IMG/VR virus record: IMGVR_UViG_3300025015_000034
Span: 1-55,135 of that record
Origin: a virus
Lineage: Duplodnaviria > Caudoviricetes
DNA length: 55,135 nt
Strand: one strand, 5' to 3'
In this document: piece by piece, positions 31,489 through 54,908 of the stretch
Position numbering within the stretch: position 1 is the first letter of the stretch
Layout: the number at the start of each line of letters is the position of its first letter
Notes under the pieces: generated by a model
What the model saw: only the letters and a program-made list of their open reading frames with translations
Database searches by the model: none
What the model was told of the DNA's origin: nothing
Position numbers and translations under genes: made by a program

Positions 31489-34400
31489 ATGGCAAATGTT
31501 TTTCAGACACTAAAAAAATTATTTTCTTCTGATGTAGTAGTTAGACGTATTGGCAAGGGAAAATTCCGGGTTATTGATGCATATAATACCCAGGCTATGG
31601 GTATGTTAGCAACTAATTATTTAACAGGAAAATACTCTTCTTTATATTTAAATAATTTTAATTACGGATACAGTTCAACTTTAACATCACAATCTCAGAG
31701 GTTTATGTTGTTTAGAGAATATGAAATAATGGATCAAGATCCAATAATTTCATCGGTTTTAGACATATATTCTGAGGAATCCACTATAAAGAATTACTAT
31801 GGCGATATAGTTACTGTAAAATCAGATGATAAAGAAATTAAAGGTATATTAGATAATTTATTTTACGATATATTAAATATAGATTTTAATTTAGTTCACT
31901 GGGTAAGAAATTTAGTTAAATATGGAGATATGTTTTTAAAACTAGATCTAGCCGAAAAAATAGGTATTGTAGGTGTAATTCCTATATCATCATATTTTAT
32001 TCAAAGGTTAGAAGGAATAGATATGCAGCATCCTTATGAAGTTAGTTTTAAAATTGATGGTCCTTTCTTAAATGGAACGTATGATAATTATGAAATTTCT
32101 CACTTTAGAATGTTAACAGATTCTAATTTCCTACCTTATGGTAAGAGTATGATTGAAGGAGCAAGAAGAATTTGGAAACAATTGACATTGATGGAAGATG
32201 CAATGTTAATCCACAGAATAATTAGAGCTCCTCAAAAACGAATATTCAAAATAGATGTTGGTAACTTGTCTCCAGAAGAAACAGATTTATATATTAGAAA
32301 AATAGCAGATCAGATCAAGAAGGTACCATATATGGATGAAAATGGTAATTATAATCTAAAATATAATATACAAAATATCACTGAGGACTTCTTTATACCT
32401 ACAAGAGGACCAGAAGCTAATACTGTAGTAGATACTTTACAAGGATTAGAATATAATGCAATCGAAGATGTCGAGTATCTAAAGTGTTTACGAGGAGATA
32501 TAAAAATAAAATTATTAAATGGTGAAGATAAGTCTATAAAGGAGATTTCGGAAACATTTGAACCTAATAAATATGAAACATGGTCAATTAATCCTAATAC
32601 ATTAAAATTGGAACCAGTTAAAATAATAGGTGCTAAAAAAACTATTAAAGATGCAAAGTTAATAAGAATTGTATTAGATAATAATGAATATATAGATTGT
32701 ACTTACAATCATAAATTTATGTTAAGAGATGGCACGTTTATGGAAGCTGATAAACTATCAGTAGGCGCTTCAGTAATGCCATTGTATACAAAAATAACAG
32801 ATGAACATAATTATTTAAAGGGATATGAATTAATTTATAATCCAGGAGAAAATAAATGGAGATATTCACATAGAATAGTTGGTGAATACAAATATCCAGA
32901 TTTAAATAACCACAGTGGAATATTACATCATGTTGATTTTAATAAATTAAACAACACATCAAGTTTTACAGGAGACAAACACAATTTTACTGAAAATTTA
33001 AATATGAGAGTAACCAATCAATACTCAAACCATGTAAACTATTTAAACCATAAAATTAAAGATATAATTTATTTAACTGAAACTGATGATACTTATGATA
33101 TTGAAGTTTCTGCTAATTCAAATTTTGCACTATCATCTGGCATTTTTGTTCATAATAGTAAAATGCTAGCAGCACTTAAAGTTCCAAAGGCCTTCATTGG
33201 TTTTGAAGAAGCGATAGGATGTGTTGTACCAGATACTCAAATACCACTGTTAAGTGGAAATACTAAAAGTGTAAAAGAATTAATAATTGATTATGAATTA
33301 GGGATAACCAACTATGTGTATTCAATAGATGAAAATACAAATAAAATTGTTCCTGGAAAAATAGAATGGGCAGGATACACACGAAAACATGCAGAATTAG
33401 TTAGAGTTCATTTAGATAATAATAATCATATTGATTGTACACCAGATCACAAATTTATGCTAAGAAATAATATCTGGGTAGAAGCTAAAGATTTAAAAGA
33501 AAATGATTCTTTAATGCCATTATATAGAAAACACAATGGTTTGGGCTATGAAACTGTGTATGATATTAATAGTTGCAAATATATTCCAACTCATAAAATG
33601 GTGGTCGAGGGAATTAATAAATATATAAAGGGGAATGTTACCCACCACGTAGACTTTAATAAAACAAACAACTATCCTGACAATTTAGATTGTACGATGA
33701 ATTTTCGGCAACATAGAAAATACCATCAGGATAACATTAAAAAAACGTTAAATTCTAAAGAAAATATTGAGCGCCGTGTAAATGACCCTAATTGGTTAAA
33801 CTCAGTTAAAATCGCTGGACGCAAAGGTGGTCTAAAATCAAAGGATAAGCTTGTTAAATGGATAAAACAAAATGGTCCATGGAATAAAGGGATGTCAAGG
33901 TGTAAAAAGAAGCAGGCTATATGCAGTAATTGTGGATTATTGATAGAAGTGTTGGAAGGTAAAAAAAATAAAAACTATGTATGTAGTGAAACTTGTAGAA
34001 AGGAATTTTTCAGAGGAAAAAATTTATATAACTATATTACCTTAGATTTTGATTATTTAATTGAATGTGCAAAACAGTCTACATCATTTAAAGATTTATG
34101 TAATAGATCAAGTACAGGTAGACATATAATATTTAGAGAAATCCAACAATTAGGATTAAGCAAATTAGATTTTATAAATTGCTATATGCCTCTAGCAAAA
34201 GAAAATAGAGGATTTTTAAATAATTATATGTCAGAATTAGAATTTATTCCTAAATATGGTTTTGATGAATTAATGCAGGTTGCAAATAATAGTAATTCTA
34301 TATCAGATGCATGTAAAAAATTAAAAATAACATTGACATATTTTAATAAGATGGTGGAATATCATGGTTATGATAAAATAGATTTTGTTTTAGAAAATAT

Positions 34401-35343
34401 GCCTAAAATGAAGAACAATAAAATGGCATGGTCTCAATTTGAGAAAACAATAAACAAAAAACTTAATCATAAAGTTAAATATATTGAAAAATTAAATATT
34501 ACAGAGGATGTATGCGATATTACCATTTTTAAATATAATAATTTTGCAACAGATGCGGGAGTTATTATTCATAATTCCAAGGCCACACTGTCCCAGGAAG
34601 ATATTCGGTTCGCTCGTACAATTGAAAGAATTCAAAAAATTGTTGCAGCAGAATTAAATAATTTAGCATTGGTTCATTTATATGTTCAGGGATATAGAGA
34701 AGAAGATTTAGCTAATTTCGAATTAACACTTTCAAGTCCATCTACAATCTATGAACAAGAGAAAATAGAACTGTGGAAGAGTAGACTTGATGTAGCCCAA
34801 AGTGCTAAGCAAAACGCGGTATTAGGTAATGAATTCTTATATAAAGAAATATTCGATTTAACAACTGATAGAATAGAAAAAATAAATAAATCATTAGTAG
34901 AAGATTCTAAATTTGAATATAGATTGAATCAGATTAAAGAACAAGGTAATGATCCTGCCGCATCAGGCCAACATGCAGATGAATCTGGAACAGTTAGACA
35001 AGTAAATGAACCAGATCAAATTGATGTTGAAGGAAACCAAGCAGCTAATTCTGGAGATGGAGCACAGTCGCAGGGAGCTGGCAGACCCAAAGAATCTAAA
35101 TCTAACTACAAAACAGATGAACATCCGATGGGCAGAGACCCGTTAGGTCAAAAAGATATGAAACAAAGCATGAAGGTACCTAAACCTAGCAAGTTAAGTT
35201 TTAAAGGGGGCAGTCCCCTAAGTGTTGAAACTAAAAAAGATTTGAAGCAGTCTTTGTTTTCAACTAAAATACTCAAAAAAATACTTAAAGAAAATGGAGG
35301 CGAAGATATAATGACTGGTAGTATGGAGGAGATATTAAATTAA
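31489..35343 (+). CDS. gp20: portal protein, T4 gp20-like, with two cis-inteins (mature protein about 608 aa)
   Basis: YGKSMIEGARRIWKQLTLMEDAMLIHRIIRAPQKRIFKIDVGNL, EDFFIP.RG, ALKVPKAF, EDIRFARTIERIQ. Confidence 0.93.
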   Translation: MANVFQTLKKLFSSDVVVRRIGKGKFRVIDAYNTQAMGMLATNYLTGKYSSLYLNNFNYGYSSTLTSQSQRFMLFREYEIMDQDPIISSVLDIYSEESTIKNYYGDIVTVKSDDKEIKGILDNLFYDILNIDFNLVHWVRNLVKYGDMFLKLDLAEKIGIVGVIPISSYFIQRLEGIDMQHPYEVSFKIDGPFLNGTYDNYEISHFRMLTDSNFLPYGKSMIEGARRIWKQLTLMEDAMLIHRIIRAPQKRIFKIDVGNLSPEETDLYIRKIADQIKKVPYMDENGNYNLKYNIQNITEDFFIPTRGPEANTVVDTLQGLEYNAIEDVEYLKCLRGDIKIKLLNGEDKSIKEISETFEPNKYETWSINPNTLKLEPVKIIGAKKTIKDAKLIRIVLDNNEYIDCTYNHKFMLRDGTFMEADKLSVGASVMPLYTKITDEHNYLKGYELIYNPGENKWRYSHRIVGEYKYPDLNNHSGILHHVDFNKLNNTSSFTGDKHNFTENLNMRVTNQYSNHVNYLNHKIKDIIYLTETDDTYDIEVSANSNFALSSGIFVHNSKMLAALKVPKAFIGFEEAIGCVVPDTQIPLLSGNTKSVKELIIDYELGITNYVYSIDENTNKIVPGKIEWAGYTRKHAELVRVHLDNNNHIDCTPDHKFMLRNNIWVEAKDLKENDSLMPLYRKHNGLGYETVYDINSCKYIPTHKMVVEGINKYIKGNVTHHVDFNKTNNYPDNLDCTMNFRQHRKYHQDNIKKTLNSKENIERRVNDPNWLNSVKIAGRKGGLKSKDKLVKWIKQNGPWNKGMSRCKKKQAICSNCGLLIEVLEGKKNKNYVCSETCRKEFFRGKNLYNYITLDFDYLIECAKQSTSFKDLCNRSSTGRHIIFREIQQLGLSKLDFINCYMPLAKENRGFLNNYMSELEFIPKYGFDELMQVANNSNSISDACKKLKITLTYFNKMVEYHGYDKIDFVLENMPKMKNNKMAWSQFEKTINKKLNHKVKYIEKLNITEDVCDITIFKYNNFATDAGVIIHNSKATLSQEDIRFARTIERIQKIVAAELNNLALVHLYVQGYREEDLANFELTLSSPSTIYEQEKIELWKSRLDVAQSAKQNAVLGNEFLYKEIFDLTTDRIEKINKSLVEDSKFEYRLNQIKEQGNDPAASGQHADESGTVRQVNEPDQIDVEGNQAANSGDGAQSQGAGRPKESKSNYKTDEHPMGRDPLGQKDMKQSMKVPKPSKLSFKGGSPLSVETKKDLKQSLFSTKILKKILKENGGEDIMTGSMEEILN
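32485..33156 (+). mobile_element. intein 1 in portal (224 aa, degenerate HNH)
   Basis: Starts CLRGD, block B CTYNHKF, ends GIFVHN before Ser; HHVDFNKLNN. Confidence 0.92.
33220..34575 (+). mobile_element. intein 2 in portal (452 aa, HNH)
   Basis: Starts CVVPDT, block B CTPDHKF, ends GVIIHN before Ser; HHVDFNKTNNYPDNL. Confidence 0.92.
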
Positions 35344-47880: not shown

Positions 47881-48696
47881 ATGAACACATCCAGTCAAAC
47901 AAATGATCTTTTAAAAAAAGTCAAAGATCGTCTAAAAACACTTCAAGATTCAAACAAGCGAACAACTGGAACATGGAAACCAAAAGGTGTACATGTTATT
48001 AGGATGTTGCCCTACAAGTTCAATGAATATCCGTTTATTGAATTATATTTTCATTATGACATATTCAAAAACAGTGAAATATCCCCTATTTCATTTGGTG
48101 ATCCAGACCCAGTAGTAGAAGCTGCTGAAAAATTAAAAGCAGAACGAGACAAAGAATCGTTTATATTAAGTAGAAAACTAATGCCTAAACTGAGAACCTA
48201 CGTTCCCATTATTGTAAGGGGAGAAGAGGCTGCTGGTGTTAGATATTGGGGGTTTGGAAAAGAAATATATGAAGCTATATTAAAATATATGGATGATCCA
48301 GAATATGGTAATGTATTCGATCCTGATACAGGAGTGGATTTTGATCTTGAATATACTCCTCCAGAACAAGCTGGAAATACTTATGGCAAGATATCAATTA
48401 AGGCAAAAAGAAATTCAACCAAATTGGCTGATTCTCCTGAACTGGTTCAGAAGTGGCTTAATACTCAAACCAATATTAATGAAGTATATAAGGTGAAAAG
48501 TTACGAAGAATTAAAGGACATGTTGAATGAATGGTTAGAAAAAGCTAGCGAAGATACTGGAGAAGAAACTGGAACTGAAGATGAAAAAGAACCTGAAGCT
48601 AAAGAGCAAAAAAAAGATGAAGTTAAATCTTCAAAAACAGTAAAAGATGCGAGCGCAGCATTTAACGAACTATTTAACAAAAACAAAAAAATATAA
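47881..48696 (+). CDS. gp32: single-stranded DNA-binding protein, T4 gp32-like
   Basis: WKP, IRMLP, PF.ELYFHY, R.YVPIIVRGEE, WGFGK.IY, D...G.D; acidic tail ending FNELF. Confidence 0.85.
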   Translation: MNTSSQTNDLLKKVKDRLKTLQDSNKRTTGTWKPKGVHVIRMLPYKFNEYPFIELYFHYDIFKNSEISPISFGDPDPVVEAAEKLKAERDKESFILSRKLMPKLRTYVPIIVRGEEAAGVRYWGFGKEIYEAILKYMDDPEYGNVFDPDTGVDFDLEYTPPEQAGNTYGKISIKAKRNSTKLADSPELVQKWLNTQTNINEVYKVKSYEELKDMLNEWLEKASEDTGEETGTEDEKEPEAKEQKKDEVKSSKTVKDASAAFNELFNKNKKI

Positions 48697-48712
48697 TAAC
48701 CAGAGTTGACGT

Positions 48713-49030
48713 ATGAAGAAAGAAAAAAATAGTACTGAGAAGGCTGACCAATCTGAAAAAAATGTAGTTAAGCATGAAACCAGAGATAAACTTATTAGCG
48801 AAGTTTATAAAATGATTAACGAATCTGAGTCTGATTATTTTGCAACATTTTTAGATGAGGAAGAATCGACATCAACTATTATAGATTGGGTCTCTACAGG
48901 AGACCCAATTTTGGATATCCACATAAGCAATAGAATGAATGGAGGCATTGCAGTCGGGCGAATTTCAGAAATTAATGGATTAGAGTCATGTGTAACTGAG
49001 GATACACTTATTGATATAATAGTTGAATAA
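48713..49030 (+). CDS. uvsX: RecA/UvsX N-terminal part plus 13-aa split-intein N-fragment
   Basis: WVSTG...LD..IS....GG...GRISEINGLES then CVTEDTLIDIIVE* (48989-49027). Confidence 0.88.
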   Translation: MKKEKNSTEKADQSEKNVVKHETRDKLISEVYKMINESESDYFATFLDEEESTSTIIDWVSTGDPILDIHISNRMNGGIAVGRISEINGLESCVTEDTLIDIIVE

Positions 49031-49105
49031 AATAATGTTCAACCTAAGAATAAGAATTTTGCAAAGGGTAAAGATAGTAATAGTTATGGAAGATCACCAT
49101 CAATT

Positions 49106-49522
49106 ATGTCTGGGAGGGGAATCAATGGATATTTAAATTATTACGATAATAAAATATATTTTAGAAGTAGTCTAGAGATGTTAGTTTATATTTATTTATG
49201 TGAAAATAATGTAAGGTTTGAATTATCCAAACATAGAATAGAGTATGATAACGGAAATAAGACATATAATCCAGATATAGTTATTGATAATACAATAATA
49301 GAAATAAAACCAAAATTTCTATTAAATTGTAAAACAGTTGTGGACAAATTAGAAGCTCTCAAAAATTATTGTAATATATTTAACCTTAAATTTAAAATAA
49401 TTACAGAAGATTCATATGAAATATGGAAATATTTCAATAAAGATTTTATAGAATTGTTAATAAAAGAAAATAAATTGATATTATCAGATAAACAAAAAGA
49501 AAGATTATATAACTATAATTGA
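49106..49522 (+). CDS. TnsA-like PD-(D/E)XK endonuclease between the split recA halves
   Basis: YFRSSLE, TYNPDIVI, IIEIKP; frame is open upstream to 49031. Confidence 0.75.
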   Translation: MSGRGINGYLNYYDNKIYFRSSLEMLVYIYLCENNVRFELSKHRIEYDNGNKTYNPDIVIDNTIIEIKPKFLLNCKTVVDKLEALKNYCNIFNLKFKIITEDSYEIWKYFNKDFIELLIKENKLILSDKQKERLYNYN

Positions 49523-49531
49523 AGTTTAATT

Positions 49532-50836
49532 ATGGACATACAAAAAATAAAAATTAAAGATGTTAAAAAGTTACTCGATTCGGGCAAAATAGTAAGGGTG
49601 AAAACTCTAAATGGAGATTTTACTAAGATTAAGAATTATATTACTAAAGGAATACTAGATACATATGAAATTGAACTTGAAAACCTTAATAAGATTAAGG
49701 TTTCGGCAACCCATCTGTTTTTTAGTAATATTGGATGGATTAAAACCGAAAATCTGAAAGTCAATAAACATAGTTTGTTGTGTGATGATGGTGGGTACCA
49801 TCTTGTTAAGAAAATAGAATATGTAGGAAAACATAATATAGTTGATATAGGTGTAGAACATTTAGAACAGTGCTATTTCGGTAATGGAATACTTAATCAT
49901 AATTCTGGAAAATCTTTGTTAATCGGTCACATATTAGCAGAAACTCAGAAAAAAGATGGAATTGCCGTATTAATAGATACTGAAGATGCGATTGATAGAG
50001 ATTTTTTAAAAATTATAGGCGTGGATCTAAATAAATTAATTTATGTAAATACAAATTTAATAGAAGATGTATTTGAAATAATTGAGAGTATTATAGAAAA
50101 GGTTAGAAAAGATGACTCTAATAAACTTATTACCATAGCAGTTGATTCTATAATGGGCGCAACGGATAAAACAGAAGATGAAGCGGGCTGGGACAAAGCA
50201 GGTTATAAGACTCAAAAAGCAATTATCATTGGACAAGCAATGAGAAAAATAACTCATACGATTGCAAAATATAGAATTGCGCTTGTGTTTACTAATCAAT
50301 TAAGAACCAAGCTCGGGGTACTTTGGGGAGATCCTCTCACAACATCCGGAGGTAAAGCTATTGGATTTCATGCATCACTCAGACTTAGATTAAAAATGTT
50401 ATCTCAGATAAAATTGAAGGACAAAACTGTTGGTATTAAGGTAAACTGTACTGTAAAAAAGAGCAGATTTGGTTCAATGTATAATTCATGTAACTTTGAT
50501 ATTTATTTTGATAGAGGACTAGATCCTATTTCAACTTGGTTTGAAGAAGGAAAACGATATAAAATAATAATTCCTGCAAAAAAATTGGATGATGTTGGTA
50601 AAAAAATGAAAGAAGTGAAGGGATGGAACATGTTAGATACTGATGAAAATCAACCTGAGCACTTTTTCCAACTACCGTCGTTTGAAGAAAAAATATTAAA
50701 AAATTCGGAAAAAAAGGAATACTTATATACAAAATTAGTTGACAATATTCTTCTAAAATATAAGAACAGGTCTCAACTTATTCCTATGGATAAAGAAGAG
50801 CTGAAGTATATAGGCGATGAAGAAGATGAAGGATAA
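49532..50836 (+). CDS. uvsX: split-intein C-fragment (124 aa) plus RecA/UvsX C-terminal part
   Basis: VSATHLF block B, YFGNGILNHN then SGKS (Walker A), IDTEDA, IAVDS, FTNQLR, TTSGGKAIGFHASLRL. Confidence 0.9.
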   Translation: MDIQKIKIKDVKKLLDSGKIVRVKTLNGDFTKIKNYITKGILDTYEIELENLNKIKVSATHLFFSNIGWIKTENLKVNKHSLLCDDGGYHLVKKIEYVGKHNIVDIGVEHLEQCYFGNGILNHNSGKSLLIGHILAETQKKDGIAVLIDTEDAIDRDFLKIIGVDLNKLIYVNTNLIEDVFEIIESIIEKVRKDDSNKLITIAVDSIMGATDKTEDEAGWDKAGYKTQKAIIIGQAMRKITHTIAKYRIALVFTNQLRTKLGVLWGDPLTTSGGKAIGFHASLRLRLKMLSQIKLKDKTVGIKVNCTVKKSRFGSMYNSCNFDIYFDRGLDPISTWFEEGKRYKIIIPAKKLDDVGKKMKEVKGWNMLDTDENQPEHFFQLPSFEEKILKNSEKKEYLYTKLVDNILLKYKNRSQLIPMDKEELKYIGDEEDEG

Positions 50837-51884
50837 GTTTAGAGCTATTTTAGATGAAATAGAAAAAGACAATAGAGGTTTAAGTTCACAAAACATAAAT
50901 TCTAGAATATTACTAGTAGATGGTTTAAATAATTATATTAGAATTTGGGTCATTATGCCAACTGTTAATGAAGACGGAACTCACGTTGGAGGAATTGTTG
51001 GATTTTTACAGACGTTGGGTTTAGCAATTCGGACGCTTCGACCAACTAGACTAATAGTTACTTTCGATGGGAAGGGCGGCTCCTTGCGTAGGAGAAAACT
51101 ATATCCACAATATAAACAGAATAGAGGACGAGGCGTTCGTTTAAATAGAACCCATAATTGGGCAGATGATGCAGAAGAATCTAAACAGATGATGTATCAA
51201 TTAATGAGGGTTATAAAATATTTAAGTCAACTACCATGTACAGTAATTTCAGTAGATAATATCGAAGCAGATGACACAATAGGATATATATGTGAGTTAT
51301 GCAGAGAAAATGATGATACTGAAAGTTTATTTATAATGTCTTCAGATAAAGATTTTTATCAACTAGTAGATAAAAAAATAAAAATTTGGAATCCAGTTAA
51401 AAAGAAAATGACTGAATATAATGATATTATAAATGAATTTAATATTCAGCCATATAATTTTTTATTATTTAAGGCTATGAACGGTGACAGTAGTGATAAC
51501 TTACCAAAGATAAAAGGTATAGGAAAAAAGACAGGAATTAAAAATTTTCCTTTATTAACTGAAACAACCCAATATAGTACAACTGATGTATTAAAGTATG
51601 CTCAGGAGCACCAGGATAGCTCCAGATTATGCAGAATACTTCTAGATAATAGTAAACAATATGAATTAAATTACATACTTATGAGGCTCGCTGGAGGTAA
51701 TATAAGCAAATCAGCTGCTTTACATATTTTAGATAAGTTCAATTCTAAACCTCATAAACTAGATCACCATAGTATTCAAGAACTAGTATTAGAGGACAAA
51801 CTTTGGTCTTCATTTCCGAACATAAACTCATGGGTAAATTTAAATTTTGCCCGTTTGAACTTTTTCGCGATGAAAAATAAATAA
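50817..51884 (+). CDS. 5'-3' exonuclease / flap endonuclease (T4 RNase H or PolI N-terminal type)
   Basis: LLVDG.N, FDG, YK.NR, EADD, SSDKDF.QL, GDSSDNLP..KGIG.KT. Confidence 0.9.
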   Translation: MKKMKDKFRAILDEIEKDNRGLSSQNINSRILLVDGLNNYIRIWVIMPTVNEDGTHVGGIVGFLQTLGLAIRTLRPTRLIVTFDGKGGSLRRRKLYPQYKQNRGRGVRLNRTHNWADDAEESKQMMYQLMRVIKYLSQLPCTVISVDNIEADDTIGYICELCRENDDTESLFIMSSDKDFYQLVDKKIKIWNPVKKKMTEYNDIINEFNIQPYNFLLFKAMNGDSSDNLPKIKGIGKKTGIKNFPLLTETTQYSTTDVLKYAQEHQDSSRLCRILLDNSKQYELNYILMRLAGGNISKSAALHILDKFNSKPHKLDHHSIQELVLEDKLWSSFPNINSWVNLNFARLNFFAMKNK

Positions 51885-51939: not shown

Positions 51940-53280
51940 GTGGAAGTAGATAATCTTGCAAATTTTGGTCAATCATATCAATCGAAAACGATTTATTCTT
52001 TGCTTACTGATGGGCCATTTTTAGAACAGATAGAAGATGTTTTATTTACAGAATATTTTGAATCTGAAGCGAATCAATGGATTGTAAAAATAATCAAACA
52101 GCACTTTGAGGTGTTTAAAGTACCCCCTACTTTAGATGTATTTAAATGTGAACTAGAAAAAGAAACAAATGATTTATTTAAAGAAGAAATCATAAAGAGA
52201 TTATCAGATGCGCTTGATTATAAAGATGCACAAGACCTGCAATATATAAAGGAAAACTTTATTCAGTTCTGTATCAATCAGCACTACAAGATTACATTTT
52301 ATCAATCCTTAGATGATTATAAAAAAGGAAATTATTCTGCGATTAGAAAAAGATTCGAAGATGCAGAAAAAGTAGGACAAAGTAGAGATTTAGGTCTTAT
52401 GTTATTAGACAAAACAGCAGACACTGTAATGAATCAACTTAAGAGAAAAACTATATCAACTCCATGGGACATAATAAATGATATGACAGAAGGAGGCTTG
52501 GCACCTGGGGATTTATCAATAATAGTTGGAGGACCGGGAGCGGGAAAATCATGGTTTTTATGCAATGTTGGGTCGCATGGTTTAAAATTAGGATTAAACA
52601 TAATCCATTATACATTAGAACTAGATGATATAATGATTGCAAGAAGATATTATTCTTTATTTACTGGTATACCGAGTATGGATTTAAAATATAGTTTAAG
52701 TGAAATAGATAGTAAAATTACTGTATATAAGAATAAAAATGCAACACTATGTATAAAGAAATACCCAACAAAACGTGCATCTATTAATACTCTAATTACA
52801 CATGTTAAAAAATATAAATCCATGGGGTTAAACCCTGACTTAATTGTAGTAGATTATGCTGATTTACTTAAGCCAGAAAAATTTTACAAAGACAAACGAT
52901 TAGAATTAGGTAACATATATGAGGAACTAAGAGGAATGGCTGGTGAACTTCAGGTACCAATTTGGACTGGAAGTCAGGCAAACCGTTGTCTATTTTTAGA
53001 TACAAATGTTATAACATGTGATAAGGGTACTATAAAAATAGTAAATATTACTGTAGGAGATAAAATATTAACGCATGCTGGGTTTAAAAAAGTAACATTT
53101 ATATATCCTATAGAAAAACAACCCGTTTATAAAATCAAAACAAAGGGAGGAAAAGAAATTTTGGTTTCTGCTAAGCATTTATTTCCAGTTCAATACAATA
53201 AGTTCAAATCAATTGATAGTGGTCTAGTTCCAGGTGATAAATTATTTATTAAAAAGCAAAAATTGACACCTAGTTCATAA
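51940..53280 (+). CDS. gp41: replicative helicase gp41/DnaB N-terminal part plus split-intein N-fragment (97 aa, from 52987)
   Basis: GGPGAGKS, YTLEL, IVVDYADLL, WTGSQANR then CLFLDT...VSAKHLF. Confidence 0.92.
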   Translation: MEVDNLANFGQSYQSKTIYSLLTDGPFLEQIEDVLFTEYFESEANQWIVKIIKQHFEVFKVPPTLDVFKCELEKETNDLFKEEIIKRLSDALDYKDAQDLQYIKENFIQFCINQHYKITFYQSLDDYKKGNYSAIRKRFEDAEKVGQSRDLGLMLLDKTADTVMNQLKRKTISTPWDIINDMTEGGLAPGDLSIIVGGPGAGKSWFLCNVGSHGLKLGLNIIHYTLELDDIMIARRYYSLFTGIPSMDLKYSLSEIDSKITVYKNKNATLCIKKYPTKRASINTLITHVKKYKSMGLNPDLIVVDYADLLKPEKFYKDKRLELGNIYEELRGMAGELQVPIWTGSQANRCLFLDTNVITCDKGTIKIVNITVGDKILTHAGFKKVTFIYPIEKQPVYKIKTKGGKEILVSAKHLFPVQYNKFKSIDSGLVPGDKLFIKKQKLTPSS

Positions 53281-53327
53281 GAATTTTTTATTTTTCTATA
53301 TATTATTATAATAAAATAGGAAAATAC

Positions 53328-54457
53328 ATGGAAACAATATCATTCGATGATTTTACAAAATTCAAAAACATTAAAACATATAGATTAACTAACAAACAAA
53401 AACAGCAACTGGTAGACATATTAAATTCATTTGATAAAAATATATATCATCAAATAGATATATAATAGAAAACTTTATAAAGTATGATGTAGAATTTGAT
53501 CCTACTTGGAAAAACAGGTTTATTAAAATTAAAAATATTTTAAAGCATGATTCTTGTTCACTAGATTCTTTCGTAACCAGATATGGAAAAAGCAATGGAC
53601 ATACATTGTGGTTAGAAAGAAGAAAAGGTATTAGTGTAACTAAAGAAAAATATGCAAAAAAGCACGGAATAGATAAAGCTAATGAATTATCACGTAAGAA
53701 GGCATGTATTGGTAAACATATAATGATAAATAAATATGGAATTGAAGAAGGAACAGATAAATGGAATTCATATTTAAAAAAATGGAAACATAGTTATAAA
53801 GAAAATAAACAATATCATAAACCATCAAATACCAAATCTCTGAATTTTTGGGTAAATAGATTAGGAAAAGAGGAAGGAACTAAAAAATACAATTTTATTA
53901 TAGGAAAACAGAAGTATAGATTCTCTAAGCAATATTATATTGATACATACGGGAAAGAACAAGGAGAAATAGAGTGGCAAAATTATATAGCTTCAATGAA
54001 TAAAACATCATTAACTTCTTTTATAAGTAGATATGGAGATAAAAAAGGAAACAAAAAATTTAAAAAATACTTAGAAAAATTAAAAAGAAGCCATCGATCG
54101 ACATATTATAGTAAAGTTTCTCAGGAACTATTTTGGTCAATTTATAATTTACTACCTCAAATCACCCAGCAATATTGTAGATTTGCTGAATTTGGTGGAG
54201 AAGAAAAAATATACTACATAAATGATTATGATATCTTTTATCCAGATTTTAAGTTGTGCAATGTTGTAATAGAATTTGATGGTGATTATTGGCACAGCAG
54301 AGAAACTACAATTATAGCAGATAAACTCAGAGAAGAAAAATTGATTAGCAAAGGATATGAAGTATTGAGAATTAAAGAAAAAGATTATAGTTTAAACGAA
54401 GAATTAATACTTGATAATTGTATTGAATTTATAAAGGAAAATATAAATGAAACATAG
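53328..54457 (+). CDS. DUF559/Vsr-like endonuclease between the split helicase halves, frameshifted near 53450
   Basis: KYGxEEG repeats, FYPDF, VIEFDGDYWH, GYEVLRIKE; upstream ATG 53328 has an AGGA RBS in a different frame. Confidence 0.75.
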
Positions 54458-54908
54458 GTTAAAGAAGGGGGACTTTATAATAGATGAAATAGAGTCTATA
54501 GAATTAGTAGGAGATTTGCCAACAATAGATATTGAAGTAGAAAAAACGCATATGTTTTTTGCAAATGATATATATGTGCATAATTCTGGTTCCTCAACAG
54601 AGTTTATTTCAGGAGAACAAATTGCAGAAGATTACAGTAAAATAATGACAGGAGATTTTATATTTTCTATTTCACGTAAAATAGAGGATGCAATGCATAA
54701 AACTGCTAGAATTTTTATAATAAAAAACAGATTTGGAGTTGATAAAATAATATGTCCTGCAAAATTTGATGTTTCAAATGGAAATTCTGTAATTCATGAT
54801 CCATCATCTTTACTAGGCAAAGAAACTAAAGGTCAGATGAATAAAGATGATAATATAAAGAGTTTAATAAGAGAAAGATTGTTTTCTGACAAAAAAAGAA
54901 AAAAATAA
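54447..54908 (+). CDS. gp41: split-intein C-fragment (46 aa) plus helicase C-terminal part
   Basis: IDIEVEKTHMFFANDIYVHN then SG...IAEDYSKIMTGDF..SISR...IIKNRFG. Confidence 0.92.
   Translation: MKHRLKKGDFIIDEIESIELVGDLPTIDIEVEKTHMFFANDIYVHNSGSSTEFISGEQIAEDYSKIMTGDFIFSISRKIEDAMHKTARIFIIKNRFGVDKIICPAKFDVSNGNSVIHDPSSLLGKETKGQMNKDDNIKSLIRERLFSDKKRKK

Follow-up and report, generated by a model that had tools for sequence, protein, structure and literature searches.

A candidate atypical split intein, with an N fragment of 13 residues, in the Walker A motif of a T4-like phage UvsX recombinase

The viral record IMGVR_UViG_3300025015_000034 (55 kb, about 24% complete according to CheckV), which we analysed over its whole length of 55,135 nucleotides (hereafter the window), derives from an uncultured T4-like phage and encodes the pieces of a UvsX/RecA recombinase on its plus strand, between positions 48713 and 50836. 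The first open reading frame (ORF) of this locus, ORF1 (48713..49030), translates into 105 amino acids. Its first 92 residues (48713..48988) constitute the N-extein, that is, the beginning of the UvsX/RecA-like recombinase up to the first half of the Walker A motif (GLES). They match the UvsX-like recombinase profile PHROG 97 at 2.2e-10 and align with residues 5-87 of P0013, a relative in which the intein is contiguous, as well as with the intein-less relatives L001 and L004. The end of ORF1 reads ...EINGLES, followed by CVTEDTLIDIIVE (48989..49027) and a TAA stop codon (49028..49030). Translation, conservation and the complex model described below assign these 13 residues, which start with the intein nucleophile Cys1 (residue 93 of ORF1) and comprise the first two β-strands, to the N fragment of an intein; contigs from other studies and the relatives point to the TAA codon as what splits it.

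ORF3 (49532..50836, 434 residues) carries the remainder. Translation, Pfam and alignment place the C fragment of the intein in its first 124 residues (49532..49903), with block B (SATH, H61), block F (IVDIGV, D105) and block G (GILNHN, H123 and N124). KVSATH occupies residues 56-61, so that the [T/S]xxH signature of block B corresponds to S58-A-T-H61, and GILNHN at residues 119-124 is directly followed by SGKSLLIGH, which puts a serine (S125) at the +1 position behind H123 and N124. The C fragment aligns to the contiguous relative P0013 from residue 112 of the latter onwards. The match of ORF3 to the Pfam profile Intein_splicing (1e-05, 25.9 bits) lies under the cut-off of 35.8 and covers profile positions 25-91 only, as expected for a domain deprived of its first 13 residues. 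The C-extein (49904..50836) begins with Ser+1 and the remainder of the Walker A motif (SGKS) and comprises 310 residues, with the RecA/UvsX core and the C-terminal domain, up to the stop codon. ORF3 matches Pfam RecA over residues 124-330 (8.7e-40, 137.3 bits against a cut-off of 27) and PHROG 97 'UvsX-like recombinase' at 2e-40, and a search of the genome record with PF00154 returned a single match, at 49901-50521.

Joined end to end, GLES and SGKS read as the GxxxxGKS loop of a Walker A motif. Judged from their sequences, ORF1 and ORF3 jointly encode a complete class-1 mini-intein between positions 4 and 5 of the UvsX Walker A motif, with a composite length of 13 + 124 = 137 residues as against 136-146 residues in contiguous relatives. 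The two fragments lie in separate ORFs: intein codon 14 is a stop, and a new ATG at 49532 follows after a gap of 501 nucleotides. UvsX proteins devoid of the intein, with 60-63% identity to the C-extein, are encoded on four related viral contigs (L001-L004). L001 (402 residues) and L004 (415 residues) read ...EINGLESSGKSLLIGHIL... unbroken, with GLESSGKS devoid of any gap; the insertion point is therefore exact, and the two exteins (92 + 310 residues) add up to 402, the length of L001. The original prediction, made from the DNA alone, had described a first ORF ending in GLES, the 13-mer and a stop, and a later ORF supplying the other 124 intein residues, with VSATH and a terminal HN, before continuing with SGKS; the translations agree on both counts and the positions are right. 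Its further proposal that GLESSGKS would be rebuilt in a recombinase of about 402 residues is backed at the sequence level by L001 and L004, and its diagnosis of an atypically split intein within Walker A (GLES/SGKS) with a 13-residue N fragment is in line with the anatomy and with the intein family presented below. With a probability of about 0.85, we consider that the locus carries a naturally split class-1 mini-intein in the Walker A motif of UvsX, split at the S1 site, that its splicing rebuilds the 402-residue recombinase and that an endonuclease made the split.

Relatives were sought by searching proteins with the intein portion of ORF3 and, separately, with ORF1, and by scanning viral contigs with an alignment (A2) centred on the C fragment and its junction. 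This last step was needed to reach the family, as a locus search with the whole of ORF3 gave just the four intein-less relatives. The intein portion yielded 13 relatives: seven (414-435 residues) start at the C fragment like ORF3, three (277-285 residues) also start there but end early, and three (531-534 residues) hold the intein contiguous at the same site (GLES/CVTEDT...). Two additional N-fragment proteins, with 13 and 14 intein residues at their ends, were found with ORF1. From the A2-based scan, the best 80 of 180 relatives were kept and examined. Among these, 35 loci (L005-L039, 45-62% identity) make up the UvsX intein family, eight of them contiguous and 27 split, the latter starting at the C fragment. 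The upstream N fragment was located in 24 of the 27 split loci and measures 13 residues in 22 of them and 14 in the other two; it was not found for L007 (within 3000 nucleotides), L010 (750-nucleotide flank) and L021 (3-nucleotide flank). The repetition of this layout in 24 further loci means that it is not due to chance. The implied view of a singular case thus has to be amended: the 13-residue split is real, but it belongs to a widespread family for which 13 residues are the norm and which is related to the VidaL intein. No isolated phage covers 80% of ORF3, the best being the RecA of Microcystis phage Mel-JY01 (41%), so that the split family is known here only from metagenomes.

The N fragment is strongly conserved across the family. 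Once the duplicates L016, L023, L024 and L038 and the two 14-residue alleles were dropped, 19 alleles of 13 residues remained (18 loci and the window), in all of which C1, V2, D5 and T6 are invariant, each being encoded by two to four different codons; the same Cys, Val, Asp and Thr are invariant in the 20 rows of the N-fragment alignment A3. Codon 14 is a stop in every one of the 18 loci and in the window. These patterns indicate that purifying selection acts both on the 13-mer as a peptide and on where the stop is placed. On the other side of the split, H61, D105, H123 and N124 are invariant in the 11 C fragments of A2, and the +1 residue is a serine in ten of them and a threonine in one.

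Between the two fragments lies what is left of an endonuclease gene. An open stretch devoid of a start codon (49031..49105), in the frame of ORF1 and ORF2, precedes ORF2 (49106..49522, 138 residues), in which Pfam, PHROG, an alignment of homologues (A4) and BLASTP recognise part of a homing-type endonuclease, its PD-(D/E)xK nuclease core (RSSLE...PDIV...EIKP). The Pfam match of ORF2 to the TnsA-like endonuclease N domain (9.5e-06) has a score equal to the cut-off, 26.5 bits, and that to Phage_endo_I (3.4e-04) falls below its cut-off; no Vsr or GIY-YIG match was found in Pfam, and an NCBIfam search of the endonuclease gave nothing. A BLASTP comparison of the translated segment 49031-49519 with the 404-residue endonuclease of locus L022 aligned query residues 10-159 to target residues 248-399 (57% identity, 2e-42). 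This homology, which includes a YGRSPS motif, starts at about 49058, 16 codons upstream of the ORF2 ATG; the ORF listing shows no start before 49106 in the frame of the remnant, and no ATG, GTG or TTG was seen there on reading the sequence. Among the 24 related split loci, 13 have a full-length endonuclease ORF of 360-436 residues between the fragments, four have only pieces of the endonuclease C-terminus (52-98 residues), and seven have no ORF of at least 50 residues in the gap, which is reduced to a 9-nucleotide spacer in two of them (L011 and L038). The full-length proteins combine an N-terminal region with weak helix-turn-helix matches, a conserved NPMYGK motif and a C-terminal PD-(D/E)xK core (again RSSLE...PDIV...EIKP) that matches Phage_endo_I and the TnsA-like N domain below or at the cut-offs. 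In A4, which gathers ten full-length homologues of 360-436 residues, ORF2 aligns to this core only. Together with the L022 match, this means that a deletion removed about 60% of the gene. To all appearance ORF2 is a 5'-truncated remnant, the last 38% or so of a 360-436-residue endonuclease, devoid of the N-terminal part of about 250 residues, which presumably includes the DNA-recognition region; its product, if made, would begin at a non-conserved internal methionine. The most fitting reading of ORF2 is that of a homing endonuclease gene in decay. The endonuclease gene that had been predicted between the pieces is thus there as regards homology and position, but it is not intact.

The contiguous relative L013 was modelled with AlphaFold2 (AF2) from a six-row alignment in which L013 is 47-56% identical to the other five contiguous members. 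The model reached a predicted local distance difference test (pLDDT) of 89.7 and a predicted template modelling score (pTM) of 0.83. Its first strands span residues 12-17 and 20-25, and the split position is the two-residue turn between them. Foldseek ranked VidaL (6vgv) first in the PDB (E = 1.5e-11, template modelling (TM) scores of 0.87 and 0.88, root-mean-square deviation of 1.8 Å), followed by DnaB, gp41-1 and RecA mini-inteins, the second-best match being the DnaB mini-intein 1mi8 (TM 0.81). At E ≤ 0.001 the PDB yielded 62 matches, the listed ones being without exception intein or intein-like (BIL) domains; the HINT horseshoe is thus the predicted fold of the family. A sequence comparison (phmmer) of a contiguous member with the PDB likewise put VidaL first (2.8e-09), and the C fragment of the window finds its best PDB sequence match in the Spl DnaX mini-intein (5.5e-06). 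We then modelled the complex of the last 56 residues of ORF1 with the first 139 residues of ORF3, each with its family alignment. The complex scored 0.76, as compared to 0.01 for the best of three controls; the score mark is reached by 116 of 157 solved complexes and by 2 of 215 mismatched pairs, a calibration that holds only roughly here, as our alignments were self-built. The runs share at least 69% of contacts, with a partner pLDDT of at least 47. The interface involves residues 41-56 of the ORF1 piece and residues 1-9, 19-24, 55-62, 101-107 and 115-125 of the C fragment. The confident contacts are exactly those of LES and the 13-mer, which are located on the neighbouring strands (1-9 and 19-24), block B (55-62), block F (101-107) and block G with Ser+1 (115-125). 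The complex model favours binding of the 13-mer to the C fragment, as a prediction and not as a demonstration of binding.

Apart from this rough calibration, several points weigh against a functional split intein at this locus. The fold was modelled on a contiguous relative, the two chains of the window having been modelled as a complex only. Within that complex the N-fragment chain has a low confidence (pLDDT 47-50), and the score may reflect likeness to the solved VidaL structure. By sequence, the C fragment of the window alone matches VidaL weakly (E = 0.21). No clear Shine-Dalgarno sequence was seen ahead of the ATG at 49532 on reading the sequence. Finally, the record being only about 24% complete, a second intact recombinase gene could sit outside it. 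Taken together, the four alternative explanations that we weighed are unlikely. The one that survives best is that of a dead gene, in which insertion of the endonuclease broke both the intein and uvsX, the phage coping without the recombinase or with another one encoded beyond the 55-kb record. This would fit the low completeness of the record, and the endonuclease is itself decaying. However, 24 other loci retain this split, with N-part exteins of merely 40-73% identity, the catalytic residues are invariant while codon changes are synonymous, and both exteins are full-length and open, with the RecA match at 8.7e-40; we thus regard a dead gene as improbable.

Still less probable is an association without ligation, in which the reassembled intein would hold the two halves together as a non-covalent recombinase. 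In its favour, the complex model supports association only. However, a 137-residue domain within the Walker A motif should block ATP binding, and all the splicing residues are conserved, which mere association does not need.

The same frame is used by ORF1, the start-less stretch, ORF2 and ORF3, and is interrupted only by the TAA at 49028 and the TGA at 49520. Read-through or recoding of these two codons would yield a contiguous intein with a nested endonuclease domain, and, counting the window, 12 of 25 loci indeed have their N and C fragments in one frame. In the other 13 loci, however, the frames differ. Moreover, codon 14 uses all three stops (TAA in 14, TGA in four and TAG in one of the 18 loci and the window), which argues against stop-codon reassignment, as no single reassignment fits, and the genes of the window otherwise end on ordinary table 11 stops. 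The locus was also compared with contigs, not raw reads, that span 48600-50900 and come from four runs of four other studies, none of them flagged as a possible source of the record. They depart from the record at one point only, where all four runs have an additional G behind 49520. This base would change the TGA of ORF2 to TGG, making ORF2 12 codons longer, overlapping the start of ORF3 and placing the end of ORF2 out of the ORF3 frame; the intein would be unaffected. The one-base-shorter record may be either a real variant or an assembly slip. We consider read-through very unlikely.

The TAA at 49028, whose confirmation the original prediction had proposed as a check, is bridged by the contigs of all four runs with no differing letter. 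An assembly or sequencing error that would have put a stop into a really contiguous intein finds no support other than the one-base difference at 49520 and deserves next to no credence, since the contigs of the four studies are identical across 49028, 37 contigs are known to encode the exact 105-residue ORF1 protein (and 23 the exact 434-residue ORF3 protein), and the fragments are separated by a 501-nucleotide insert with a homologous endonuclease remnant; we rejected it as far as contigs allow.

Returning to the naturally split intein, we infer fragment association, splicing and the order of events as follows. The phage would make two polypeptides, one consisting of the 92-residue N-extein and the 13-residue N fragment, the other of the 124-residue C fragment and the 310-residue C-extein. 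Unspliced, neither piece would be able to bind ATP. The C fragment would supply the whole HINT fold except for strands 1 and 2, which the 13-mer would contribute by inserting into it; an N-S acyl shift would next be initiated by Cys1, Ser+1 would attack, and cyclisation of Asn124 would release the 402-residue recombinase with an intact ATP-binding loop. As to origin, a free-standing PD-(D/E)xK homing endonuclease gene most likely inserted into the intein-coding DNA at the turn after strand 2, thereby creating the split. The endonuclease gene of the window has probably lost its 5' two-thirds since then, in which case the endonuclease decays and the split outlives it. We would set even odds on a broader proposal, namely that the whole UvsX family relies on N fragments of 13 residues, shorter than any other natural ones seen so far, and preserves every stage of an endonuclease-driven life cycle of split inteins. 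Starting from the contiguous form, the stages would lead through a split intein whose endonuclease is intact, one whose endonuclease is decaying as in the window, and a bare split with a 9-nucleotide spacer, to an apparent re-fusion in L013. The contiguous member of that locus (L013:2947-3387) reads CVTEDTIIDVIIE and then MKKEKIKI..., that is, a 13-mer fused to a C fragment that keeps its start methionine, and looks like the re-fusion of a once-split intein.

Other inteins were encountered in UvsX and in related proteins. A second atypical split or intein occurs in the same UvsX at ...GDPW/TTSGG in P0002, P0004, P0007, L006:2605-3843 and L013:2737-3909. The ORFs of these relatives end after CVDP.TTKIKI..., with 15 residues in P0002 and P0004 and 11 in P0007; the 660-680-residue ORFs of L031, L032 and L035 may hold the second-site intein contiguous. 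The window is free of it, ORF3 running uninterrupted through GDPLTTSGGKA. At 30-36% identity, loci L040-L084 represent a sister family of inteins. They interrupt the Walker A motif of another P-loop protein, which by its motifs alone (..LAG/CVHP[DE]T... ...SSHN/TGVGKS) resembles the T4-type replicative helicase. This sister family is both contiguous and split, at the same turn. Its N fragment was located in 21 of 31 split loci and measures 18 residues in nine, 16 in six, 17 in two, 14 in two, 15 in one and 13 in one; phage P-loop inteins thus commonly have very short N fragments. Cultured jumbo Pseudomonas phages (PA5oct and relatives) have UvsX-like genes that match ORF3 unbroken from residue 21, with 24% identity, and seem to hold a contiguous intein at the insertion site of the window intein or close to it. 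In addition, the 779-position profile PHROG 9666 matches ORF1 at positions 23-72 and ORF3 at positions 462-715, as though the UvsX proteins behind the profile contained a large intein at that place.

The surroundings of the locus form a T4-like replication and recombination block. A gp32-like single-stranded DNA-binding protein (47881-48696, Pfam gp32 1.2e-11) precedes ORF1, and a 5'-3' exonuclease/RNase H-like gene (50817-51884) and then a DnaB/gp41-like helicase follow ORF3. A promoter and terminator scan gave 14 promoter-like sites for 15.1 expected and no terminator. The helicase is a second fractured gene: its ORF (51940-53280) ends in a conventional intein N part of about 96 residues (CLFLDTNV...), the gap holds a 283-residue ORF (53606-54457) with a weak DUF559 match (NCBIfam 0.0028, 17.7 bits against a cut-off of 218), and a 153-residue ORF (54447-54908) starts with an intein C part of about 46 residues (...IYVHN/SGSS) and runs on into the helicase C-terminus. 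This locus (51940-54908) has the classic arrangement described in passages of Dassa et al. 2009 (PMC2677866). Further upstream, a 1284-residue ORF (31489-35343) matches Intein_splicing at 32512-33156 (2.1e-20), 33250-33579 (8.2e-13) and 34369-34575 (5.9e-07), which suggests two contiguous inteins, the second apparently large. Counting those of UvsX, the helicase and this ORF, the 55-kb record holds at least four inteins.

Short N fragments are accessible to peptide synthesis, so that labelled or modified peptides can be joined to recombinant proteins. A conserved natural 13-mer with many divergent alleles would in this respect be a modest, practical addition for intein engineering; if the reading is true and splicing is as fast as that of VidaL, dozens of mutually divergent alleles would be ready for peptide-based semisynthesis. 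The family also points to an essential phage recombinase that would depend on trans-splicing within its own ATP-binding loop, and it offers a clean series on how endonuclease invasion and decay may create and preserve atypical split sites.

How the window intein stands among known split inteins can be judged from passages of the recent literature. The N fragments of natural atypical split inteins are given there as 15-37 residues (PMC13014065, 2026) or about 15-25 residues (PMC11923092, 2025), and the 15-residue N fragment of PolB16 OarG is called 'record-short' and 'the shortest characterized to date' (PMC10189870). The expectation that 13 residues would be among the shortest natural N fragments is borne out by these figures (PMC13014065, PMC10189870). 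Measured against the 15-16 residues that the same passages report for PolB16 and VidaL, both of which are assigned to the S1 split site (PMC13014065), a natural 13-mer is slightly shorter and would be a small quantitative record.

VidaL (PDB 6vgv/6vgw) is described as occurring naturally, depending on cysteine and being split at S1; its N fragment has 16 residues, and the half-life is given as about 1 min at 37 °C (PMC13014065). In the construct given in a supplement (PMC10264447), the N fragment is flanked by ESG and the C fragment ends in HN, followed by SGK; these flanks resemble the two sides of a Walker A loop interrupted at the position of the window intein. The likeness extends to the structure, as VidaL is the top structural match of the family model and shares the hairpin-turn split, Cys1 and the HN/S junction. 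On the other hand, the identity between the family model and VidaL is only about 22% (Foldseek), and the window N fragment has 13 residues instead of 16, with no equivalent of the three-residue KKG tail of VidaL. The original description of VidaL reportedly names VidaL T4Lh-1 and VidaL UvsX-2. These VidaL UvsX names were absent from our full-text literature search, outside which the original VidaL descriptions lie, and a prior description of the UvsX family is possible.

PolB16 OarG is likewise a natural S1 split intein with a very short N fragment (PMC10189870), but it is cysteine-less, is found in a DNA polymerase and undergoes slow splicing accompanied by side reactions (PMC13014065), whereas the window intein has Cys1 and Ser+1, resides in UvsX and has an N fragment two residues shorter. 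The order of the genes, with N part, free-standing endonuclease and C part on one strand, is that of the fractured genes of Dassa et al. 2009 (gp41, NrdJ, IMPDH and others; PMC2677866). According to the passages concerned, those inteins are split at the canonical site of the endonuclease domain, with N parts of 88-105 residues and C parts of 33-54 residues, one terminase excepted, and their endonucleases are GIY-YIG or Vsr-like (PMC2677866), whereas the endonuclease of the window is truncated and of the canonical PD-(D/E)xK type, nearest by Pfam to T7 endonuclease I and TnsA-N. Where these passages mention UvsX, it is only as a neighbouring gene (PMC2677866). The split inteins AceL TerL and GOS TerL likewise occur naturally, come from phages, have short N fragments and have been used for semisynthesis; however, they are split at S2, after the first helix, have N fragments of 25 and 37 residues, and reside in a terminase (PMC13014065). 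The Ssp DnaB M86 split, also of S1 type, has an even shorter N fragment of 11 residues (PMC13014065), but it is man-made and laboratory-evolved, whereas the window intein is natural and conserved at 13 residues. On this comparison, the window intein is therefore to be regarded not as a new kind of intein but as a new, more compact split intein of the VidaL type, cut at S1.

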